Assembly (NCBI GenBank): GCA_030587475.2
Contig: JAUQYZ020000012.1
Span: 1 to 33,587 of the forward strand
DNA length: 33,587 nt
Source of the DNA: Candidatus Sigynarchaeum calidifontis
GTDB taxonomy: Archaea > Asgardarchaeota > Lokiarchaeia > Sigyniarchaeales > Sigyniarchaeaceae
Direction: 5' to 3'
Within the stretch, counting starts at the first letter, position 1. Each line of letters begins with the position of its first letter. This document shows, one piece after another, positions 1-8,456 of this stretch. Both the position numbers and the translations under genes were made by a program. Under the pieces are notes generated by a model. It was not told the origin of the DNA, made no database searches, and saw only the letters and a list, made by a program, of their open reading frames with translations.

Positions 1-18
1 AGGAGTCTGTCTAACTAA

Positions 19-1672
19 TAATTCACGCCTCGTTCTCTTTAATCTTCTCACCTAAAGAAAAATGTCGGCCTCAAATACATATCCTCCATCCCCGTCTCGG
101 CCGACACGACTGCAAGGAATAACATCGAGATAGCTTTTAGCAGCGTGTCTTTTTTCACGTTTTCAAGACCTCGGACGCGAGTTTGCTCTAAGCCGAGATG
201 CTGCTCGCCGATACCAATTATTCCTTCGATGCACTTCCGCTGGTTGCGTCGTTTCTTGGGAATTTTGACGGGACTCGACTTTCTCTGCGCGATGCTGTTG
301 TTGATATCCCGGTCCGCGAGCGCCTTGCCATTTTCTGGGCTTTGGTAACCATTGTCCGCGTTGACGTTGCCAAATTGCACGCTTGGATATTCAACTTTCA
401 GTTCATCAACCAGCGGAATGAGCGTGATGGAATCGTGCGTGTTCGCCGGATACACATCAGCCTTTATTGGTAGTTTTTTTTGTCGTCTATAAGCAGTTGG
501 ACGCGGTAGCCGAGGAAGACCTGCTTCTTTGCAGCGCAGTAGCCAAGCCGGGCATCTGAGTCAACGTACGAGAATGAAGCCTGCAGCGCGGCGAATAGAC
601 CCGGGAAAAGCAAGTCAACCGATGTATATTGTGGCGTTGAAATCCCGATGAGAAATTTCGTGACATGCGACCTAAATGCTTCGAATGCGGGCGATTTAAG
701 AACCTTCATCAGTTGTTTCTTGAAGTTGGACATCGTTGCTTCGGAAGGCGCCTTGATTCCACCTTGGACTGCTTTTAATAGTGCCGCGTGCTCGCTTTTT
801 TCTAAATATTTCGTTACTTTTGCTTGTGACAAGAATCCGCCAAGCTCACACAACACCACGAGATTCAAGTTCTTGATCCGCTTCGTAACGTTGCCGGAAC
901 CGCCTTTTTTGTAGCCCATGGCTGCTATCACGCCTGCTGCGAGGGCTTGATATGTAGGATCATCGACAAGCGAGCGAGCAAGCAAGCGCATCGTTCAATT
1001 TGATCTCCTTGTTTGCCTTTCCCAAGTTCACGAATGCTTTGACAAGTGCGGAGTCGATGGTCACGCTTGAAAAATCGATCCAACCAGCGCGTGCGAGGTG
1101 ATCGCGCAAAGCATTGAAGACCTCGGTCAAAAGCTCCACGGTTAGCCGTTCCCGCTTAAAATAGCTAAAGGTCTGATGACTCGGTATGTCTTCAAATCCA
1201 AGTGCGGCTGCGAGATGTGGATTGCGGCGCAATTCCCGCTCCAACGCGCGATCTGACATGTTTTTATTCAACTTTGCAAAGATCACGGCCTTGAACATTG
1301 CGATTGGCGGGAATGGTTCACCGCCTCTCGTGCCTGGCTGCCACTTGTACAATGCGTCCAATTTCTCAACAAACGGCGCGAGAATGTTGTCAAAAGGCAC
1401 GGAAAAAAAGATTTTCGTCTCGACACGAGTCCCGTTTTCGTCGCACACCTTGAACACTTTATCCGCCACGAGCTGGAGCCTTTGCTTCTCGAAATAATTG
1501 TTTTCTGTCATGATAGCCATGATTCGTCCACCTTTACATCACGGGTTTTAGACAAGCATGGGTATCACACGGATATAAACTTTACCCAAAATCGAGACGT
1601 TTACGTTAAAACGGGCCGAGACGGCATTGCACGGCCATGTGTTACTTCGGTCATGGCATCTAGCGTGAAATA
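19..1672 (-). mobile_element. Degenerate insertion sequence, IS4/IS5-superfamily (IS5/IS1182-like)
   Basis: Contains the transposase pseudogene at 48..1520. Candidate imperfect terminal inverted repeats are taattcacgc (19-28) and gcgtgaaata (1663-1672; reverse complement tatttcacgc, 9/10 match). No target-site duplication was found, so the boundaries are tentative. Confidence 0.6.
48..1520 (-). pseudogene. DDE transposase split by two frameshifts (ORFs 960..1520, 464..991, 48..455); about 489 aa when rejoined
   Basis: N-terminal DUF772/InsH-like segment (GGEPFPPIAMFK...SDRALERELRRN...IPSHQTFSYF), first Asp in VTIDSALVKA, DSDARLG..FLGYRVQL, PANTHDS, second Asp in ADNGY, Glu in RKCIEG, then LGLEQTRVRGLENV. 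Removing 4 nt at 978-987 and adding 1 nt in the T8 run at 474-481 gives one 1470-nt frame. Confidence 0.88.
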
Positions 1673-1832
1673 GACTGAAACAGAAAGGCTTTAGAAGGTA
1701 AAAAGAATCATTTATACGGACTCGTCAGACTTGCAATTGATGACTGTGCTTTGATAAGTCTCCGATGGGGCATAAGATGGTTTTTATAGGAAAGAATCAA
1801 TAAACAAGCAGTTACTTGTACTTGAGACGAAC

Positions 1833-4493
1833 TTGACAAGAAGGGCGATATTAATGCAAAAAAGAATGCAATGGAAGCAATCGGGCTATTTAACTTTCGG
1901 AATTGTCGTTATAGGAGTTCTAATAGCCATCTCTGCTTTGTTCGTTAATAACGATTCGTATAAAACGAACGTATTATCGCGAATAACCGAGATAAAAGTT
2001 TCCGAGGAGAGTGTTTATGGTGGAGAGAGTATCATCATCGTCGGGAATGAACAGTTTGCAGCATTCCCGTATAAGTCCGGGAACGGTACAGTCGAATCCC
2101 CATACGTGATCGAGAACCTCACGATCACCCAGGAGGCATATCTGCTCGGATTACCTTTTGCAATCGGAATAGTGAACACGAACTGCCATTTCGTGCTGCG
2201 TAATATCACGGTCGCGTATTCTGGCAGTAGTAATTCCTTAATCGCAATCGGCATGCTCAACGTCTCTTTCGCGATGCTGGATGGCGTGACAACAAGCCAA
2301 TGCCAGCAGAGCGTGGTTATCCACAACTCATCGAACATCTTTATTGAAAATAGTGTTTTTCACGATTATAAATTCAATTCTCTTTTTGGAAATGGTGGCA
2401 TTAGCCTTGTTAACGTTGAAAATGCCACGATCGTGAATAACACGATCAGCACGACGGTCGAGGCGAGCAGCATGTTCAATGGGTTGTTGTTACAAAATAC
2501 CACGAGTTGCATCGTGGATGGTAACACGTTTATTCACTCTAGCCTCACGCTCACTGGCGTCGATGGAAACCAGGTTGCATCAAACGATATCCCTGACACG
2601 AACACGGTCGATGGGAGATTGATCGTTTTTAGAAAAAACTTGGTGAATTGTGACATCCGAAATCACATCCCGGCCCAGGATCTCATCGGGAATTTGATCC
2701 TTGCAAATTGTCAGACGTTTACCTTATCTAACATGACGTTGAATCATGGCGATCACCCGCTCGTGTTAGCATTCTGTGGCGATGGCCTTCTTTCTGGCTT
2801 GAACCTCTCCGATTCCGGGCGGGTCGGGCTGACCATGGATGGCTGCATCAACATCAAGGTCGTGAATTGTATTTTGAATAACAACTCGAACGCGGGCATG
2901 ATCCTTGGCGTGTGCTCTGGGTGCATCATCGAGGGATGCGATATTCGCGGAAATCCTAAGGGTGTCCGATTCATCGGTGGAACGAACTCGACAGTAAGAA
3001 ACTGCATTATCGAGAGCAAGGGCACGAATGGCGTGGAGCAATACAGCTGCAGCGGGATTACCATCACAAACTGCACGATTCGGGGAATGGCATATGCAGT
3101 GATCATGGATACCTTCGGATCGCAATACCCTACGGCGACGAACACGACCATCAAGGGTAATGAGATCTCGGATATTAAGTATAACGTGCTGAAGCTCACT
3201 AATAACAGCGAAATATCCTACAATATCTTCAAAAACTGCACCTGGATTGTTATTGAATGCGATTCTGCCAATGATATCGTAGCAAATACCTTTATCGGTC
3301 GTGAAGGGTGCGATAGTGCCGTGGTAATCGATGGCTCGGGTAACGAGGTCGCCAACAATACTTTCTTGTTATTTGAAGAGGGGATCATAATCCACGGTTC
3401 GAACAATGCTGCGAGATACAACAATTTCACGAACTGCACGGCGGCCATCGTTCTCCTATCAGTGACTAGCTGTACCTTGTTCCAGAACATGGTAAGCGGC
3501 GGTGAATTCGACCTGAGCCGGCTCACGTACGGCATCATCGTGAACGGGAGTTCCAATGACACCTCCATCTTGTTGAATACCGTTATGCACTGCTTTATCG
3601 GTATTGTTGTGGCAAATTCAGGGGGTATTCGTACCGTGGTGGACGAAAACCTTGTCATGCAGTGTTTCTACGGCATCTACGTGGGAGAAAACTGCACGGG
3701 TGACTTGCTATGCCGCAATAATTGTACCGGAAACAATCTGGGTATTTTGCTCTTTAAATCAACGAACATGACTATCATCGACAATATCATTGCCGGGAGC
3801 ACGGGTGATGGCATCATGCTAAACGCGGCACATGGTAATACCATCATGTCGAACACGGTTAATAATAACACCGGCAAAGGAATCTACATCGCAGCCCTTT
3901 CTGATGGAAACATCGTGGCCGAGAACACGGTTCAAGATAATACCGACTATGCTGTATATATGACTGGTTGTAACAACTCGATTTACCTTAATAACTTCGT
4001 TAACAACCACGGCGGTCAAGTACAAGCACTGGACATCGGCGTTGGAAACGTGTGGGATGATGGTGAAAAAGGCAACTATTGGAGTGATTACACGAGCCGC
4101 TATCCCGGTGCTCTTAACGATGGGATCGTATGGAACACGGCATATCTGATCGATGGTGATACTGGCGCGATAGATGGATATCCCCTTGTTAGGCCATATG
4201 TGAAAGATCCAGTCCTCGCAAGCCTCAATGTAATCGATGTCGACCTTGTGAACATTAATAACCTCGCCGACTCGGAGTTAAGCGAGGGCCGGTCAATCGT
4301 CGTGAAGTGGCTTGTCTCGATTACCGATGATGTTCTTGGTTCGGTGATGGACCATTATCAAACAACAGGCGAGGTAAATAATCGAGATGTTCGTTTGTTG
4401 CGGATGCTCGTCATCGTCATCAAGATCGTAGCGCGTGATTCCCATATAACGGAGGTTTGTGATAGGATTTTATCCAATATCGCAAACTTATAA
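1833..4493 (+). CDS. Secreted or N-anchored right-handed parallel beta-helix (NosD/pectin-lyase-like) repeat protein; start may be the ATG at 1854
   Basis: N-terminal hydrophobic segment, GNGTVESPYVIENLTI motif, many (G)I...N.(I/V)..N.I..N repeats, NosD-type end NSIYLNNFVNN...NVWDDGEKGNYWSDY...IDGYPL, many N-x-S/T sequons. Confidence 0.88.
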   Translation: MTRRAILMQKRMQWKQSGYLTFGIVVIGVLIAISALFVNNDSYKTNVLSRITEIKVSEESVYGGESIIIVGNEQFAAFPYKSGNGTVESPYVIENLTITQEAYLLGLPFAIGIVNTNCHFVLRNITVAYSGSSNSLIAIGMLNVSFAMLDGVTTSQCQQSVVIHNSSNIFIENSVFHDYKFNSLFGNGGISLVNVENATIVNNTISTTVEASSMFNGLLLQNTTSCIVDGNTFIHSSLTLTGVDGNQVASNDIPDTNTVDGRLIVFRKNLVNCDIRNHIPAQDLIGNLILANCQTFTLSNMTLNHGDHPLVLAFCGDGLLSGLNLSDSGRVGLTMDGCINIKVVNCILNNNSNAGMILGVCSGCIIEGCDIRGNPKGVRFIGGTNSTVRNCIIESKGTNGVEQYSCSGITITNCTIRGMAYAVIMDTFGSQYPTATNTTIKGNEISDIKYNVLKLTNNSEISYNIFKNCTWIVIECDSANDIVANTFIGREGCDSAVVIDGSGNEVANNTFLLFEEGIIIHGSNNAARYNNFTNCTAAIVLLSVTSCTLFQNMVSGGEFDLSRLTYGIIVNGSSNDTSILLNTVMHCFIGIVVANSGGIRTVVDENLVMQCFYGIYVGENCTGDLLCRNNCTGNNLGILLFKSTNMTIIDNIIAGSTGDGIMLNAAHGNTIMSNTVNNNTGKGIYIAALSDGNIVAENTVQDNTDYAVYMTGCNNSIYLNNFVNNHGGQVQALDIGVGNVWDDGEKGNYWSDYTSRYPGALNDGIVWNTAYLIDGDTGAIDGYPLVRPYVKDPVLASLNVIDVDLVNINNLADSELSEGRSIVVKWLVSITDDVLGSVMDHYQTTGEVNNRDVRLLRMLVIVIKIVARDSHITEVCDRILSNIANL

Positions 4494-4507
4494 GGCTTGA
4501 AGAGAGA

Positions 4508-4530
4508 ATTTTCTTGTGCTTTTTTTTATT
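4508..4530 (+). terminator. Probable archaeal oligo-T terminator after the beta-helix gene
   Basis: T-rich tract attttcttgtgcttttttttatt beginning about 15 nt after the stop. Confidence 0.45.
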
Positions 4531-4596
4531 ACTTCGTTCTTCCAAGTAGTTAAAATCATTCTCGATCTGGCAAGTGACATTTATTCCTATGGTTTT

Positions 4597-4683
4597 TAGA
4601 AAAAACGTAACATACGATACTCGAGAAAGGCGGCCAGCACGACCACGATGATGGCGACCGCGAGCGTCCGGCTCCGCGTGCCG
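4597..4683. repeat. Direct repeat copy A: orphan copy of the last ~29 codons of the hydrolase gene
   Basis: 82/87 identical to 6625..6711 by manual alignment. On the minus strand it reads GTRSRTLAVAIIVVVLAAFLEYRMLRFF*. Confidence 0.95.
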
Positions 4684-4693
4684 GATGTCCTCG

Positions 4694-4702
4694 ATTTATA
4701 AG
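4694..4702 (+). promoter_or_regulatory. Candidate TATA box for the LRR gene
   Basis: atttataag just inside repeat copy A, about 80 nt upstream of the ATG at 4778. Confidence 0.35.
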
Positions 4703-4777
4703 CTTACGAAGTAAGTCAAGAGCACACAGTCGGGAACTAACGCTACCGGCTATATCTCTATGGATAGGTTATAATCA

Positions 4778-6610
4778 ATGGGGCAAGAAATCCAAATCAA
4801 GTACAAGGGCAAAGTTATCGAGACTGTCGATAGCAACGCAAGGGAACTTTCTATCGTTTCTTCGGGAATCAAAAGCATCCGGGATATCGAGGGGCTCGAC
4901 CAGCTCGTGGATTTGGAAAAATTGACCGTCAATCCCGGCCTCGTTGATACCGAGGGGCTTGAAAAGCTCGCGAGATTGAAGGAATTAAACCTTGGATTGA
5001 ACAGCATCACCACGATCGCTGGGCTCGATCAGCTCATAAACTTAGAGGTATTGAACCTGGAACGGAACAGGATCAATAGGATCAAGGGGCTCGACCGGCT
5101 CGTACACTTGAAAGAATTAGTTCTGGACGGAAACCATATCATTAAGATCGAAGGTCTTGACCAGCTCGTGAGCCTGGAAAAACTGCGTCTATGGAGAAAC
5201 GGGATAAACAAGATTGAGGGCCTTGACCAGCTCGTGAACCTGAAAGTCTTGGATCTGGGTAACAATCATATCGTTAAGATCGAGAAACTCGATCAGCTCG
5301 TGAACCTGGAAGAATTATATCTATATCTTAACCAGATCGCCGTGATCGAGGGGCTCAGCGGGCTCGTAAACTTGAAAAAGTTGGACGTAATACAACAACG
5401 CGTGCAAATAACCAAGATCGAGGGGCTCGCCGATCTCGAGAAATTAGAATCGATAAATCTGCGCGCAACGGAAATCGCTACAGACGAGGTAATTGACCAA
5501 TTCACAAAATTATTGGCCAAGATGGGGAAAGAAGCTAGCTCGCAACTCGAATACGACCGCTGCGGAAAGATGAATCAAAAAGCGAAAGCAGCCTTGATGG
5601 CAAAGGATCTTACCTTGGCCGCCAGTGTTTTAAACGAGTTGAAAGCATATTGTGGCACGCGGGATCACCAGACAGTCAACATCATTTGCGATAATGAGCG
5701 TTACGGGGGTTCTGAAGAGTATGAACAGAATCCCCACAAATGGCTCATTCCCGCTTATGCCAACCTCAAAATCGTCAAGAAGATCATGAAGGCAAGCAAA
5801 GGGCCTTCGGGAGTCTCAGAAGGGAGCGTCGAGGAAGCCGTCAAAAGTTGGAAAGACCATCCAGCCGCTGCCGAAGCAAGACCCGGTTGTATCGGCCACG
5901 CCGAAATACCTCCGGAGACCAAGTTGCGTGCAAGGATTTTCTCGATTATGGGGGCGATCTGTGGCTTTTTCATCGGATGGGCAGGCGCTAGCCTTCTCGA
6001 AGGATGCATCTTTGGAGCCATCGGTGGAATCTCGATGTACTTGCTGGTGATCGCGATGACATCCAATAGCCGTTCCCTGCCGTCGAACACCATCTTGCTG
6101 GTGATAATCACCGCGGCATTGGGGGGTGCAGGATATCTCATCGGCGCCCTGGGGAGCGGGGACTGGCTCTTGGGTTTGGGCTTGGGCTTGAAGGTCGGCT
6201 TGCTCATCGGGATCGTGCAATCCTTGGGATGTTGGAACATGATGACCATTGACCGCATCGGCGTTCTCGTTCTAATGGCCTTGGGCGCAGGAGCGGGGGC
6301 CGGGATCGGGGCTCTGGTAGGATTGTTCACTCCGGCGGGCGCCGGATACGGGGCCGGCGTCGGGATGTTCATCGGAACGCCTGTTGTTATCATTTATTTC
6401 TCGAGGGTTATTTCCAAATCGTATTTATTCGTTCATATCAGTGGGATCGTTGTAGGTTTCATCGTTGGAGCAGCTTTGCCCGTCGGAGTTGGTATGGGCA
6501 TCGCTTGGGGCCTTTATATTGTATTACTTGCCTTCGTCATCGTTTTGCTAGGTTCGATTTGTGTCCGATACCAGCACGAGGATTTCCCGGAAGAAAGCAG
6601 GTGGGATTGA
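4778..6610 (+). CDS. SDS22/internalin-like leucine-rich repeat protein fused to a glycine-rich multi-pass (~8 TM) membrane domain
   Basis: About 9-10 22-aa repeats LxxLxLxxNxIxKIEGLDQLVN; no N-terminal signal peptide; helical linker; about 8 hydrophobic GxxxG-rich segments from residue ~385 to ~595. Confidence 0.88.
   Translation: MGQEIQIKYKGKVIETVDSNARELSIVSSGIKSIRDIEGLDQLVDLEKLTVNPGLVDTEGLEKLARLKELNLGLNSITTIAGLDQLINLEVLNLERNRINRIKGLDRLVHLKELVLDGNHIIKIEGLDQLVSLEKLRLWRNGINKIEGLDQLVNLKVLDLGNNHIVKIEKLDQLVNLEELYLYLNQIAVIEGLSGLVNLKKLDVIQQRVQITKIEGLADLEKLESINLRATEIATDEVIDQFTKLLAKMGKEASSQLEYDRCGKMNQKAKAALMAKDLTLAASVLNELKAYCGTRDHQTVNIICDNERYGGSEEYEQNPHKWLIPAYANLKIVKKIMKASKGPSGVSEGSVEEAVKSWKDHPAAAEARPGCIGHAEIPPETKLRARIFSIMGAICGFFIGWAGASLLEGCIFGAIGGISMYLLVIAMTSNSRSLPSNTILLVIITAALGGAGYLIGALGSGDWLLGLGLGLKVGLLIGIVQSLGCWNMMTIDRIGVLVLMALGAGAGAGIGALVGLFTPAGAGYGAGVGMFIGTPVVIIYFSRVISKSYLFVHISGIVVGFIVGAALPVGVGMGIAWGLYIVLLAFVIVLLGSICVRYQHEDFPEESRWD
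4860..5470 (+). repeat. 66-bp coding tandem repeats of the LRR array
   Basis: Recurring units such as atcgaggggctcgaccagctcgtg, atcgaaggtcttgaccagctcgtg and attgagggccttgaccagctcgtg, mostly at 66-nt spacing. Confidence 0.8.
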
Positions 6611-6623
6611 ATCTTCCAATAAT

Positions 6624-8456
6624 CTAGAAAAACCGGAACATACGGTACTCGAGAAAGGCGGTCAGCACGACCACGATGATGGCGACCGCGAGCGTCCGGC
6701 TCCTCGTGCCGCTGGCCAGCAAGCCGCCCAGGAAATACACCGCGGCCATGATGACTGGAATGGCGGCCAGGACTAGAAGGTTGATGGGCACCTGGATGGC
6801 CGAGTAGGAGAGCACCGGGAGGGAGTAGATGACCAGTGCGATGCTGGCAAGACGCCAAACGAAAACGATCCCCGTGCCCTTGCCCAGACCGGCGAGCCGG
6901 TGCTTGCCCGCCCCAGGTGCCGCCGGGGACGCAGCGACGATATTCAAGAGGGCCAAGTCGACGGCAAAGTTCAGGAAAAAGATCGTCGTGTAGCAAACGA
7001 ATGCCGAATTGAAAATGCTGATGCCGAACTGCAAGATCGCGCTGGCGCACGCGTCGTAGGTCAGCGAGAAGAAAACCGCCGTCACGGCGATGGACGTCAT
7101 GCCCGCAATCCAGTTCCGAGCTCGAGCTTCATGCATCCACTCCTTGACATTCAATGGCGTGCCGGATTTTCGGACGATGGCCCACTTCGCGGCCACGAGG
7201 AATCCAAGCGCCGAGGCCGGGAAGAAGAGAAGGTACCCCCACATGACCGACGTGGCGCCGGCCGCGACCAACAACCCGACCACGAAAGCGGCCGCAAGTA
7301 TTCCTCCGAGGATCCCGGCGATTGCCCGTCGAGACGGACGGGGGGGTTGCGGTTCCGTGCACGTGGCGGCGTTCGCCGGGCTCGCCGCAACCGGGGCTGC
7401 CGCCCCCCGGAGTACCATGAAGAGTGCCATGAACAGCATGATCGCCGCGGCCACGAGCCAACCCGCTGCCGCGTCCGTGGATCCCGAGGGAACGTCCTGG
7501 ATGGCGATGCCCGCCGCGCTCGCCCACAACGCGGACGTCGACGGCACGGAACCGTTCTGGAGCGACCAGTCCAGCCACGCGATGGCGAGCGACAAGGACA
7601 CGGGATCTGCCTCGTTCCCCGGGTGGTTGAGCCCTGGACGGACGATCACGAGGTTGTCGGTATTGCCCGTGGCATTCGCGCGAGCCGAGAGAGCAAAAGA
7701 ATTGCCGGGCACTACCTCCGTGTCGTTCTCCCCGTGCAAGAAGAGGATGTTGCGCGGGAGCACGGCGCCGATCCAGTTGATCGGGGAGCGCGCCTCCAGG
7801 CTTGCATCGTCGAGCGGGAAGTTGGGCAAGGCGCCGACCAGCTGGGCGACCTGGAAGTCGCCCGATAATAATGCCCCGAAATCTGCCGGGGGATGGTACA
7901 CGGCCGAGGCCGCGACCCTGGCATCCTTGCACGCGGCCAGGACGGAGAACATGGCACCGAGCGACTGGCCGCACAAGGAAACCTTGCTGGAGTTAATGGC
8001 GGGAAATGTGCCAAGCGCCCACGTGATCGTGTCCGAGATATCGGCGGGTTCATCGATGCCGAACGAGGCGATGCCCGAAGAATCGCCGTTGCCCCGCGCC
8101 TCGACGGCGATCGCGACGAACCCGTTGAGGGCGAAATTGTATGCCTTCCAGAGCATCGATTCCTTCCGGCCGTTGATGCCCGGGCTCAAGACGGTCAAGG
8201 CCGTGGAGTTTACGGGGAGGGCATCGAACCCGGCCGGGAGCACGACGTAAGCGGAGAGCGAGTTCCCGTCCCGGAGGGGCACGCGGACTTCCTGGAACGC
8301 GATGCCGCCCGGGTTAGCATCGTAGAACGGCTGGATGCCGGGAATCTGGACAGCCACGTCGCCAATCGCCGCAAACGTGAAGGTTATCGCGAGGATCCCG
8401 AGAATCGTGATTGTTATCGTTCGATTATCGAGCCGTCTCGACGACGATGGGGTCAT
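6624..8456 (-). CDS. Membrane-bound alpha/beta hydrolase (S9/S15-like esterase or peptidase) with one N-terminal and several C-terminal TM helices
   Basis: RDGNSLSAYV, ARGNGDSSG, nucleophile elbow GQSLG, HGENDTEV (Asp), GLNHPG (His); hydrophobic C-terminal half. Confidence 0.88.
   Translation of the reverse strand: MTPSSSRRLDNRTITITILGILAITFTFAAIGDVAVQIPGIQPFYDANPGGIAFQEVRVPLRDGNSLSAYVVLPAGFDALPVNSTALTVLSPGINGRKESMLWKAYNFALNGFVAIAVEARGNGDSSGIASFGIDEPADISDTITWALGTFPAINSSKVSLCGQSLGAMFSVLAACKDARVAASAVYHPPADFGALLSGDFQVAQLVGALPNFPLDDASLEARSPINWIGAVLPRNILFLHGENDTEVVPGNSFALSARANATGNTDNLVIVRPGLNHPGNEADPVSLSLAIAWLDWSLQNGSVPSTSALWASAAGIAIQDVPSGSTDAAAGWLVAAAIMLFMALFMVLRGAAAPVAASPANAATCTEPQPPRPSRRAIAGILGGILAAAFVVGLLVAAGATSVMWGYLLFFPASALGFLVAAKWAIVRKSGTPLNVKEWMHEARARNWIAGMTSIAVTAVFFSLTYDACASAILQFGISIFNSAFVCYTTIFFLNFAVDLALLNIVAASPAAPGAGKHRLAGLGKGTGIVFVWRLASIALVIYSLPVLSYSAIQVPINLLVLAAIPVIMAAVYFLGGLLASGTRSRTLAVAIIVVVLTAFLEYRMFRFF
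6625..6711. repeat. Direct repeat copy B: the current 3' end of the hydrolase gene
   Basis: Matches 4597..4683 at an offset of 2028 nt. Confidence 0.95.

Follow-up and report, generated by a model that had tools for sequence, protein, structure and literature searches.

An orphaned hydrolase gene end in an Asgard archaeon, apparently the seam between two sets of neighbouring genes

The window analysed here is the whole stretch of positions 1-33,587 of contig JAUQYZ020000012.1 (labelled C268). It belongs to a MAG of an Asgard archaeon (Promethearchaeota; labelled G000) with 269 contigs and 4,986,501 bases, 89% complete and with 5.18% contamination. The locus lies at the left end of the window and has the following features.

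1..1639, minus strand: IS-like element (Pfam), which reaches 129 bp into contig C73 at its left end.
960-1520 (DUF772), 464-991 and 48-455 (DDE_Tnp_1), minus strand: pieces of a transposase, in three ORFs (Pfam).
1833..4493, plus strand: gene of a NosD/right-handed beta-helix protein, 886 aa, 46% G+C (Pfam NosD 1.8e-40, Beta_helix 7.5e-39).
4494..4596, no strand: AT-rich spacer, 33% G+C, from the NosD stop to the orphan stop (sequence, base composition).
4597..4683, minus strand: orphan copy A, the last 28 codons of a hydrolase allele and TA of the stop, in frame, with a TAA stop (repeat search, translation, alignment).
4684..4690, no strand: the 7-bp GATGTCC, directly beside the orphan and repeated at C73:3846-3852.
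4694..4701, plus strand: TATA-box-like motif ATTTATAA, 77 nt before the start of the LRR gene (sequence).
4778..6610, plus strand: LRR-membrane gene, 610 aa (Pfam LRR_4 2.9e-27, also LRR_8).
6624..8456, minus strand: hydrolase gene, 610 aa, 63.5% G+C (Pfam Peptidase_S15/S9, residues 63-299).
6625..6711, minus strand: copy B, the functional 3' end of the hydrolase gene (repeat search, translation, alignment).
4686..7831, no strand: stretch colinear with metagenome contig L048, 87.19% identical over 3146 aligned bases (alignment).

No tRNA gene was found in the window. The hydrolase gene encodes an alpha/beta-hydrolase (S9/S15-like) domain fused to a C-terminal multi-pass membrane domain, which makes up a long hydrophobic half. 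The LRR protein has N-terminal LRRs and, in its C-terminal half, a hydrophobic, glycine-rich, multi-pass membrane domain; its C-terminal 370 aa are found in 2 of 41 genomes, namely G000 itself and, as a 30% match, G005. The ATTTATAA motif is conserved in L048 and may be the TATA box of the LRR gene. The NosD gene is convergent on the orphan. Its product has no close relative among 10 related genomes (no more than 43% identity, and that over part of its length), in genome_contigs (30-35% in Bathyarchaeia) or in viral_contigs. A second copy of the IS, 74% identical, lies at C145:13221-14855; no terminal inverted repeats of the IS were found.

Copies A and B form a direct repeat of 87 nt, 94% identical and spaced by 2028 nt. 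A search of all 4,986,501 bases of the genome with the 87-mer returned only these two places (E values 1e-39 and 1e-32), so that a chance origin of the repeat can be dismissed. Translated from the minus strand, the orphan gives GTRSRTLAVAIIVVVLAAFLEYRMLRFF, and the 610-aa hydrolase ends in ...VLTAFLEYRMFRFF. By direct count 82 of the 87 bases match. The five differences comprise three synonymous changes and two replacements (T/A and F/L), and the stops are TAA and TAG. The similarity has two sharp edges: one is the stop codon, the other lies at 4683/4684 in copy A and at 6711/6712 in copy B. Its longest identical run is 41 bp. A and B are closer to each other (5 differences) than to the same gene end in G001 or L048 (7-9). 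The preliminary description of this DNA had reported the repeat, its codon differences, the in-frame reading of the orphan and the end of similarity at the stop, and had proposed the genome-wide search; our repeat search, translation and count agree with it throughout.

Orthologues of the hydrolase occur in G001, of the same genus (79% aa identity), in L048 (82%, partial) and in L047 (61%). G001 carries neither the LRR gene nor the orphan and has one copy of the repeat; its far flank, a gene named x314, begins within ~20 nt of the hydrolase stop. The alignment of L048 with the window, from 7831 down to 4686, takes in the hydrolase and the LRR gene, whose product shares 84% of 457 residues with its L048 counterpart. 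L048 contains the 87-mer once and lacks an orphan within 10 kb. Its homology with the window is lost at 4684-4686, exactly the inner edge of the orphan, past which L048 runs into x314 (order hydrolase - LRR - x314). In L047 the same place is occupied by a D12 DNA methyltransferase gene. The x314 remnant of G000 lies on contig C73 and adjoins a VWA gene, which also follows the hydrolase locus in G001. From these alignments, the slot right after the hydrolase stop is best explained as variable, filled with different genes by related Asgard strains: with nothing in G001, with the LRR-membrane gene in L048, with the D12 methyltransferase in L047 and, in a further haplotype that we infer, with the NosD-like gene and the IS. 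The order hydrolase - spacer - NosD of that haplotype was not found in any sequence searched. G001 and L047 provide the empty site and the alternative cargo that the preliminary description had suggested looking for. The full tandem paralogue that it had named as evidence against its own reading was sought and not found: G001, L048 and L047 have one hydrolase copy each, and the two halves in G003 are separate genes.

The last 129 bp of C73 are 100% identical to window positions 1-129, and the join of the two contigs rests on this terminal overlap. The joined order is hydrolase(B) - LRR - orphan A - NosD/IS - x314 remnant - VWA. It fits the arrangement to which the preliminary description had pointed, that is a full gene, a new module, the displaced old 3' end and an older module. 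The description had taken the LRR unit as the added DNA; compared with L048, the extra DNA is instead a 4.74-kb block across the seam. This block of 4,739 bp consists of 56 bp, the IS, the NosD gene, the spacer and, as its last piece, the orphan, and is bracketed by the two copies of GATGTCC. When the block and one GATGTCC copy are removed in silico, the result can be aligned with L048. We estimate the chance of a flush 7-mer recurring in a 90-nt window at ~0.005, a post hoc and uncorrected value. The absence of the block from L048, together with the 7-bp bracket, points to two alternative fillings stacked in one slot, the NosD gene being the older or alternative one. We read GATGTCC as the last far-flank bases brought in on an incoming piece; alternatively, it is a target-site duplication. 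At the seam itself, 4683/4684, at most 1 base is shared, with B taken as proxy for the lost sequence.

The orphan is apparently a dead copy of the hydrolase tail, marking the seam between two neighbour-gene sets from related strains. We regard it as somewhat probable that the locus is an integrase-free allelic recombination scar with two fillings in series, as in homology-facilitated illegitimate recombination (HFIR) or 'C-terminal displacement'. The arrangement would then read hydrolase(B) - LRR block - 7 bp of far flank, followed by orphan A - spacer - NosD - IS - far flank, and would stem from a single recombination event in which two diverged haplotypes of this locus took part. The incoming DNA, a short piece made of one filling, the 87-bp hydrolase end and ~7 bp of far flank, would enter via homologous pairing in the hydrolase 3' end, and its other end would be closed illegitimately. 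With such an entry and closure the resident filling is kept rather than replaced, and one tail allele is orphaned at the seam. By an equivalent route, the piece would first circularise, and a single Campbell-type crossover in the 87-bp stretch would integrate it. A dedicated recombinase would not be needed, as the cell's own recombination would suffice. The direction of the event and its enzymology are likewise our reconstruction, and in principle the repeats could recombine and release the DNA between them. It counts against this reading that the incoming piece must end 7-25 bp from the boundary of the filling, which random ends would rarely do. Longer flanks would give a scarless replacement, an ascertainment argument for the short ends.

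The differences between the copies suggest two diverged coding alleles, as the preliminary description had proposed. At this locus all three polarised orphan-specific changes fall at third codon positions (P 0.037). The change in the orphan's stop is also a third-position one, and all of these changes are G/C to A/T. Pooled over the analogous loci described below, 13 of 20 polarised orphan-specific changes are at third positions (P 0.0037); synonymous changes are in excess (20 of 38 codons, against 8.6 expected), a count that takes the orphan and gene branches together. In addition, the two B-derived changes lie proximally and the A-derived ones distally in the repeat, the pattern expected from a crossover inside it (chance probability ~2 in 15). 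The 87 bp hold no clearly informative sites for dating the orphan relative to the split of G000 and L048.

A genome scan of G000 gave at least 4 cases of 3'-end orphans, including this locus. The same architecture with a cargo of lower G+C occurs on C103 (repeat of 104 bp), C48 (193 bp) and C215 (225 bp), and the analogous repeats belong to unrelated genes and are 52-233 bp long. For C103, G001 offers a clean empty site, and all five polarised differences are derived in the gene copy. On C48 the far convergent gene is also represented at the seam, by 41 bp that lie 6 bp away from the orphan, so that two flank fragments lie there back to back. Far-flank pieces were not detectable at the C103 and C215 seams.

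HFIR itself is reportedly the subject of de Vries & Wackernagel 2002 and Prudhomme et al. 2002. Behind T6SS effector, rhs and CDI genes lie orphan 3' ends together with immunity genes, and HFIR has been proposed for the orphan arrays behind T6SS effector genes, with 'C-terminal displacement' as the term for rhs, according to the excerpt we draw on (Kirchberger et al. 2017, PMC5361080). As described there, these arrays share with our locus a conserved anchor gene, at which a relative's new 3' end and downstream module arrive while the previous 3' end and module are displaced downstream but retained, without an integrase and with the possibility of stacked events. A scar-free haplotype of the donor type exists here too, in L048. 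The arrays of that excerpt vary the gene's own C-terminal domain, whereas the Asgard locus varies the neighbouring gene; its repeat is therefore the extreme 3' end up to the stop. Relative to the same account, the host is an archaeon, there are no toxin-immunity pairs at the locus, and the seam also holds a few far-flank bases, which suggests a short piece with both flanks or a circular intermediate.

The preliminary description had instead seen the LRR gene as a single-gene cassette between the repeats. In its fullest form, a non-autonomous integrative cassette, made of the LRR gene and one 87-bp copy, would use the hydrolase 3' end as att and restore it, be served by a site-specific recombinase in trans and be able to leave as a 2,028-bp circle. 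We consider this unlikely. Integration at a gene 3' end with a replacement gene end is known from bacteria, as with E. coli icd, the target of e14 and phage 21. Among archaea, 14 of 68 iMGEs of Thaumarchaeota sit in the 3'-distal part of a protein gene, in one case with TAG exchanged for TAA, and att sites measure 8-69 bp, as given in an excerpt of PMC6563490. The locus resembles the elements of that excerpt in its direct repeats, of which one overlaps a gene 3' end, in the altered stop codon and in the mostly silent differences between copies. The 41-bp identical run could contain a core, and G001 lacks the LRR gene and has a single repeat copy, as an empty site should. L048 is at odds with such a cassette: this closest relative, 87% identical, holds hydrolase and LRR gene with a single 87-mer, where a filled site should have two. 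The repeats, 87 bp here and in unrelated genes at other loci up to 233 bp, are ill suited to one recombinase. The LRR protein's C-terminal part has no relative in viral_contigs or genome_contigs. No integrase lies near the locus, as had been stated, and Pfam of the local genes gives no recombinase; the genome has 2 matches to PF00589 (tyrosine recombinase), on C86 and at C48:42-143, and none on C268, C73, C103 or C215. This search covers an 89%-complete MAG, and an enzyme might still act in trans. The integrated elements of Atabeyarchaeia are likewise small insertions in Asgard chromosomes; in the portion of PMC11529989 considered they are 1.3-40 kb long, have tyrosine integrases and 11-bp AT-rich att motifs, and some are also seen excised. 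That portion describes no gene-end duplication for them, and the present locus differs by its 87-bp repeat and lack of an integrase.

Slightly less likely still is that the 4,739-bp block is an IS-driven transposition unit, which captured the NosD gene and a hydrolase tail elsewhere and whose insertion upstream of the LRR gene duplicated 7 bp of target. GATGTCC precisely flanks the DNA missing from L048, the IS sits at one block end, and the reconstructed empty site aligns with L048. Yet the block would have landed less than 2 kb from the gene whose tail it carries, a chance of ~2 kb in 5 Mb. The IS ends form no terminal inverted repeats with each other or with the end of the orphan, and no surrogate end as in ISEcp1-like units was found; the transposase is in pieces; and homology with the C145 copy starts ~52-56 nt inside the block edge. 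The flank piece on C48, at least 41 bp, is too long for a target duplication.

It is improbable that a local duplication left a second hydrolase between NosD and LRR, of which all but the last 87 bp were deleted. The frame and stop retained by the orphan and the mutual closeness of A and B would suit such a decayed tandem paralogue. The relatives show no tandem copy, and the next best hydrolase match inside G000 is 27% identical. In addition, in-place decay would neither confine the orphan's changes to third positions nor account for the derived states of the gene copy at C103. Finally, an assembly artefact chaining the fillings of two co-existing strains into one contig is very improbable: although this is a MAG in 269 contigs with some contamination, A and B differ like strain alleles and the structure literally places haplotype 2 after haplotype 1, the seam between the orphan's inner end and GATGTCC offers no common sequence for joining (only 7 identical bases precede the first difference there, so it is not a k-mer node), repeat lengths vary from locus to locus and from one side of a seam to the other, and terminal contig overlaps have no fixed length.

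The recombination scar that we favour may have a wider counterpart, which we put forward tentatively and with considerable doubt. The lineage might routinely gain genes without an integrase, by short pieces from related strains that carry one filling with tens to ~200 bp of flanking gene ends, circularise and enter a gene end through one homologous crossover. Fillings would be stacked instead of swapped; every event would leave behind an allelic tail orphan and be reversible if the copies recombine, and the 2,028-bp unit would be a former circle.

Taken alone, the locus adds modestly to a kind of recombination scar that is already known. If our reading holds, short in-frame gene tails beside accessory genes should be annotated with care, as seams rather than small genes or att sites. 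Scars of this type lend themselves to automatic searches and show the alleles of donor and recipient next to each other, a rare kind of information on uncultured archaea. On the same reading, the locus would be a legible record of an Asgard archaeon adding accessory surface-protein genes through its own recombination between strain haplotypes, at slot boundaries set by gene ends and without mobile-element machinery.

The Candidatus Sigynarchaeum calidifontis MAG (G000; 4.99 Mb in 269 contigs, 89% complete, 5.2% contaminated) carries on contig C268, the whole of which is the window, an 87-nt direct repeat, whose copies A (window 4597-4683) and B (window 6625-6711) are 94% identical, with 5 differences, and lie 2028 nt apart. 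A 610-aa hydrolase gene ends in copy B, with the stop TAG. Copy A, an orphan, can be read in the same frame through 28 residues that match those of B save for two replacements (T to A and F to L), and it has the stop TAA. The similarity breaks off sharply at both ends. The preliminary description was right in every one of these details, namely the repeat, the five differences, the frame and the stops. It also proposed a search of the genome with the 87-mer, which finds only the two window copies (E 1e-39 and 1e-32). The locus is laid out as follows.

1-1639: IS-like element, leftmost, with DUF772 and DDE_Tnp_1 parts; its transposase is in three ORF pieces
1833-4493: NosD/beta-helix gene, convergent, 886 aa, 46% G+C
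4494-4596: spacer directly left of the orphan, 103 bp, 33% G+C
4597-4683: orphan copy A
4778-6610, plus strand: LRR gene between the copies, 610 aa, leucine-rich repeats and a glycine-rich membrane half
6624-8456, minus strand: hydrolase gene, 610 aa, Peptidase_S15/S9 matches at residues 63-299, hydrophobic C-terminal half

With 63.5% G+C against 54.2% for the genome, the hydrolase gene lies above the 99th percentile of the genome's 2-kb windows (62.2%), whereas its neighbours (window 1833-6610) have 46-50%. The window holds no tRNA genes. No tyrosine recombinase is found on C268, and the whole genome has two PF00589 matches, on C86 and at C48:42-143. The last hydrolase codons (R-F-F-stop; window 6625-6640 and 4597-4612) give 5-6 consecutive T on the coding strand, which, speculatively, could double as the gene's own terminator in archaea.

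The hydrolase-membrane protein is encoded by one gene in G000, in the same-genus genome G001 (79% amino acid identity) and in two metagenome contigs, L047 and L048. In another genome, G003, its hydrolase half (70%) and membrane half (53%) lie in distinct open frames some 700 kb from each other (G003:C1:2530640-2531533 and 3237779-3238645), so the gene looks like a fusion. The remaining hydrolase matches among the 41 genomes searched do not exceed 33% identity. A metagenome scan for related loci gave three out of 96 pattern-matched stretches.

What stands behind the hydrolase stop varies. The G001 locus has neither the LRR-membrane gene nor a second tail copy: a homologue of the 3' side of x314, the far-flank gene of the locus, begins within about 20 nt of the stop, with PKD and VWA/zinc-ribbon genes next in order. 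The empty-site comparison suggested at the outset thus finds an LRR-free state in G001. This genome cannot date the orphan, because its hydrolase is only 79% identical and its downstream genes (PKD, VWA) differ. L047 (61% amino acid identity) has a D12 DNA methyltransferase gene in this slot, and L048 has the LRR gene; the slot is therefore filled differently in each lineage seen. The NosD gene and the membrane half of the LRR gene have no close relative in the relatives' genomes, genome_contigs or viral_contigs. Since the source search for NosD found none, the hydrolase-NosD haplotype that we infer is still unseen.

L048 is the closest counterpart of the right-hand part of the locus (82% amino acid identity over the hydrolase part present). 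Its bases 1-3144 align to window 7831-4686 without rearrangement, at 87.19% over 3146 aligned bases. The alignment spans the 3' half of the hydrolase gene, the LRR gene (84% amino acid identity) and 92 nt upstream of the latter. L048 carries the 87-mer once, and the window homology stops at the orphan's inner edge. Within the LRR gene, L048:2636-2640 (window 5192-5194) has TGA where the window has TGG (Trp), splitting it into frames of 138 and 458 aa; this may mean that the gene is a pseudogene or is recoded, or it may come from a sequencing error.

Beyond the break, L048 continues with x314, a GNAT gene and further genes. Pieces of L048-type x314 occur in G000 as well (79-92% identical), on the small contig C73, where they adjoin the orthologue of the G001 VWA gene. 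C73 ends in 129 bases that recur unchanged as window 1-129, where the IS has its left end, and no contig other than C73 and C268 shares this terminal sequence at 100%. Given this unique overlap, and an IS interior contiguous with NosD, we take the two contigs as neighbours. Put together, they run VWA, x314 remnant, 56 bp, IS, NosD, spacer, orphan A, LRR block and hydrolase gene with copy B. A 10-bp perfect hairpin stem lies on C73 just outside the left end of the IS.

G000 exceeds L048 by 4,739 bases, which run from C73:3853 to window 4683. The 7-mer GATGTCC is present at both edges of this block (C73:3846-3852 and window 4684-4690), and removal of the block with one 7-mer leaves a sequence that can be aligned with L048 across the junction. 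The inserted part relative to L048 is therefore the IS-NosD-orphan block, with the orphan as its last piece, and not the LRR gene. Relative to G001, both fillings are extra.

The same kind of scar occurs elsewhere in G000. Self-comparison gave 27 same-contig repeats, 50-600 bp in length and separated by under 30 kb. A more sensitive pass gave 37 same-contig direct repeats. Of these, 11 remained after rough filtering for pairs in which one copy forms the 3' end of an ORF of 150 aa or longer and its partner falls within no ORF of that size. After inspection, four cases are sound and a fifth is probable.

Gene-end repeats in G000: copies, length, identity and DNA between the copies
C268:4597-4683/6625-6711: 87 bp, 94%, LRR-membrane gene
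C103:3344-3447/6094-6197: 104 bp, 94%, convergent 806-aa Big_13 protein gene
C48:30312-30504/33876-34068: 193 bp, 93%, 660-aa unknown gene and BNR protein gene
C215:2251-2475/4075-4299: 225 bp, 91%, behind a PIG-L gene, ATPase_2/DUF234 gene
C151:5777-5828/6719-6770 (probable): 52 bp, 90%, 891 bp of DNA with 44% G+C

Candidates on C131 and C56 were dropped as wrong-frame ORFs; C202, C209 and two rows from C63 were not counted, being ambiguous or paralogue ends. An exact 128-bp direct repeat, 4.2 kb apart, also lies at the start of the 18.6-kb contig C157 (1-128 and 4373-4500).

In all five loci the orphan has kept its frame and stop. The DNA between the copies has a lower G+C content than the flanks in the four sound cases, for C48 with respect to the gene-side flank only (0.494 against 0.541 and 0.504). 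At 85% identity or above, G000 has no repeat on a single contig that exceeds 250 bp, so that the leftover tails are short as a class. C103 has a clean empty site in G001, and 133 bp separate its orphan from the downstream flank native to the locus; the gene copy is the one with the derived state at all 5 polarised differences, which identifies the orphan as the old resident tail. At the C48 locus, G001 has the gene and a 195-bp 3' remnant (G001:C3:1891-2085) of the cargo gene that is intact, with 660 aa, in G000. At the C215 locus it has only a 183-bp 3' fragment of PIG-L, with no full copy beside it (G001:C461:11917-12099). Such lone remnants in G001 mean that gene-tail leftovers are not peculiar to G000.

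In the C48 seam, 41 bp of the far convergent gene (33829-33869; 36/41 identical) end 6 bp before the orphan and score 57 against a shuffle maximum of 37. The layout is that of C268, where the far-flank piece would be only 7 bp. In a loose test, which compares the far end with the sequence lying downstream of each orphan, the C268 7-mer does not stand out (P 0.40), and only its flush position speaks for it as a far-flank piece. The same test gives no significant far-flank fragment at C103, C215 or C48 (P 0.19-0.89); a 30-nt similarity noticed by eye at C103 was dropped on this result.

To see whether copies A and B are alleles, we polarised their differences with G001, L048 and L047. Derived states are found in copy B at repeat positions 8 and 50, and in copy A at 67, 76, 79 and the stop; each of the six changes is from G/C to A/T. 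Those of copy A all fall on third codon positions (3/3), plus the third base of the stop; the F to L change affects a position where the four functional genes all have F. The B changes are proximal and the A changes distal, as would be expected from a crossover inside the repeat, an arrangement with a chance of about 2 in 15; its partners would be a diverged and an ancestral-like allele. The density of G000-specific changes along the hydrolase gene, a further crossover test, is too noisy (0-15% per 60-site bin). Over the 87 sites A and B differ at 5, B and L048 at 8, and A and L048 at 9, with no clearly informative position, so that the A/B split cannot be placed before or after that of G000 and L048.

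When the loci are pooled, third positions account for 13 of 20 polarised coding sites with orphan-specific changes (P 0.0037) and for 7 of 14 with gene-copy-specific changes, all ambiguous sites and three C215 sites beyond the stop being left out. Synonymous codon differences number 20 of 38, both branches mixed, against 8.6 expected from random hits under a null that ignores transition/transversion bias.

The simplest account covering all observations is recombination in the gene end. The slot between two conserved flanks would differ in gene content from strain to strain. A short piece of DNA from a different strain, bringing one filling and bits of both flanks, would pair with the resident chromosome in the common gene end. 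Its other end would be closed illegitimately, or the piece would first close on itself and enter by a single crossover. The resident filling would thereby be retained, one gene tail duplicated and two flank fragments placed side by side at the seam. That the incoming piece ended so close to the filling boundary may reflect which events leave a scar: we suggest that pieces with longer far-flank homology would replace the filling and leave none. The order of arrival of the two fillings cannot be told from the data.

In the preliminary description the LRR gene was a single-gene cassette that had entered the gene end and could excise between the repeats. A site-specific cassette has a good precedent in the integrated elements of Thaumarchaeota (PMC6563490), but the idea is weakened by L048, where the LRR gene is present and the IS-NosD-orphan block absent, by the lack of an integrase and by the other loci, whose repeats differ in length and are unrelated. 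An integron/attC reading was set aside, there being no integrase and the repeats being gene ends. Transposition of the block as an IS-driven unit would account for the 7-bp repeat. It leaves unexplained, however, why a block with a hydrolase tail landed 2 kb from the hydrolase gene, and the ends of the IS are not definable: no terminal inverted repeats were found, and its end is unlike that of the orphan. A second copy of the IS, 74% identical, lies at G000:C145:13221-14855. A decayed tandem paralogue finds no support in any relative, and an assembly chimera is unlikely, as the seam has no shared sequence for joining.

Recombination in the gene end has known parallels. The same logic has been proposed for orphan arrays behind T6SS effector genes and for the 'C-terminal displacement' of rhs genes, with homology-facilitated illegitimate recombination as the suggested route (PMC5361080). 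In Thaumarchaeota, 14 of the 68 integrated elements occupy the 3'-distal part of a protein gene, and one of these elements exchanges TAG for TAA (PMC6563490). Gene-end duplication scars and integrase-free displacement are thus already known in bacteria, as is integration at protein-gene 3' ends in archaea. For Asgard mobile elements, integrases and 11-bp att motifs are described, and the words 'duplicat' and 'direct repeat' are absent from the excerpted text (PMC11529989). A limited search of the literature on Asgard integrated elements found no gene-end orphans, which does not prove their absence. To these cases the C268 locus adds one in which L048 supplies a donor-type haplotype and G001 an empty state.
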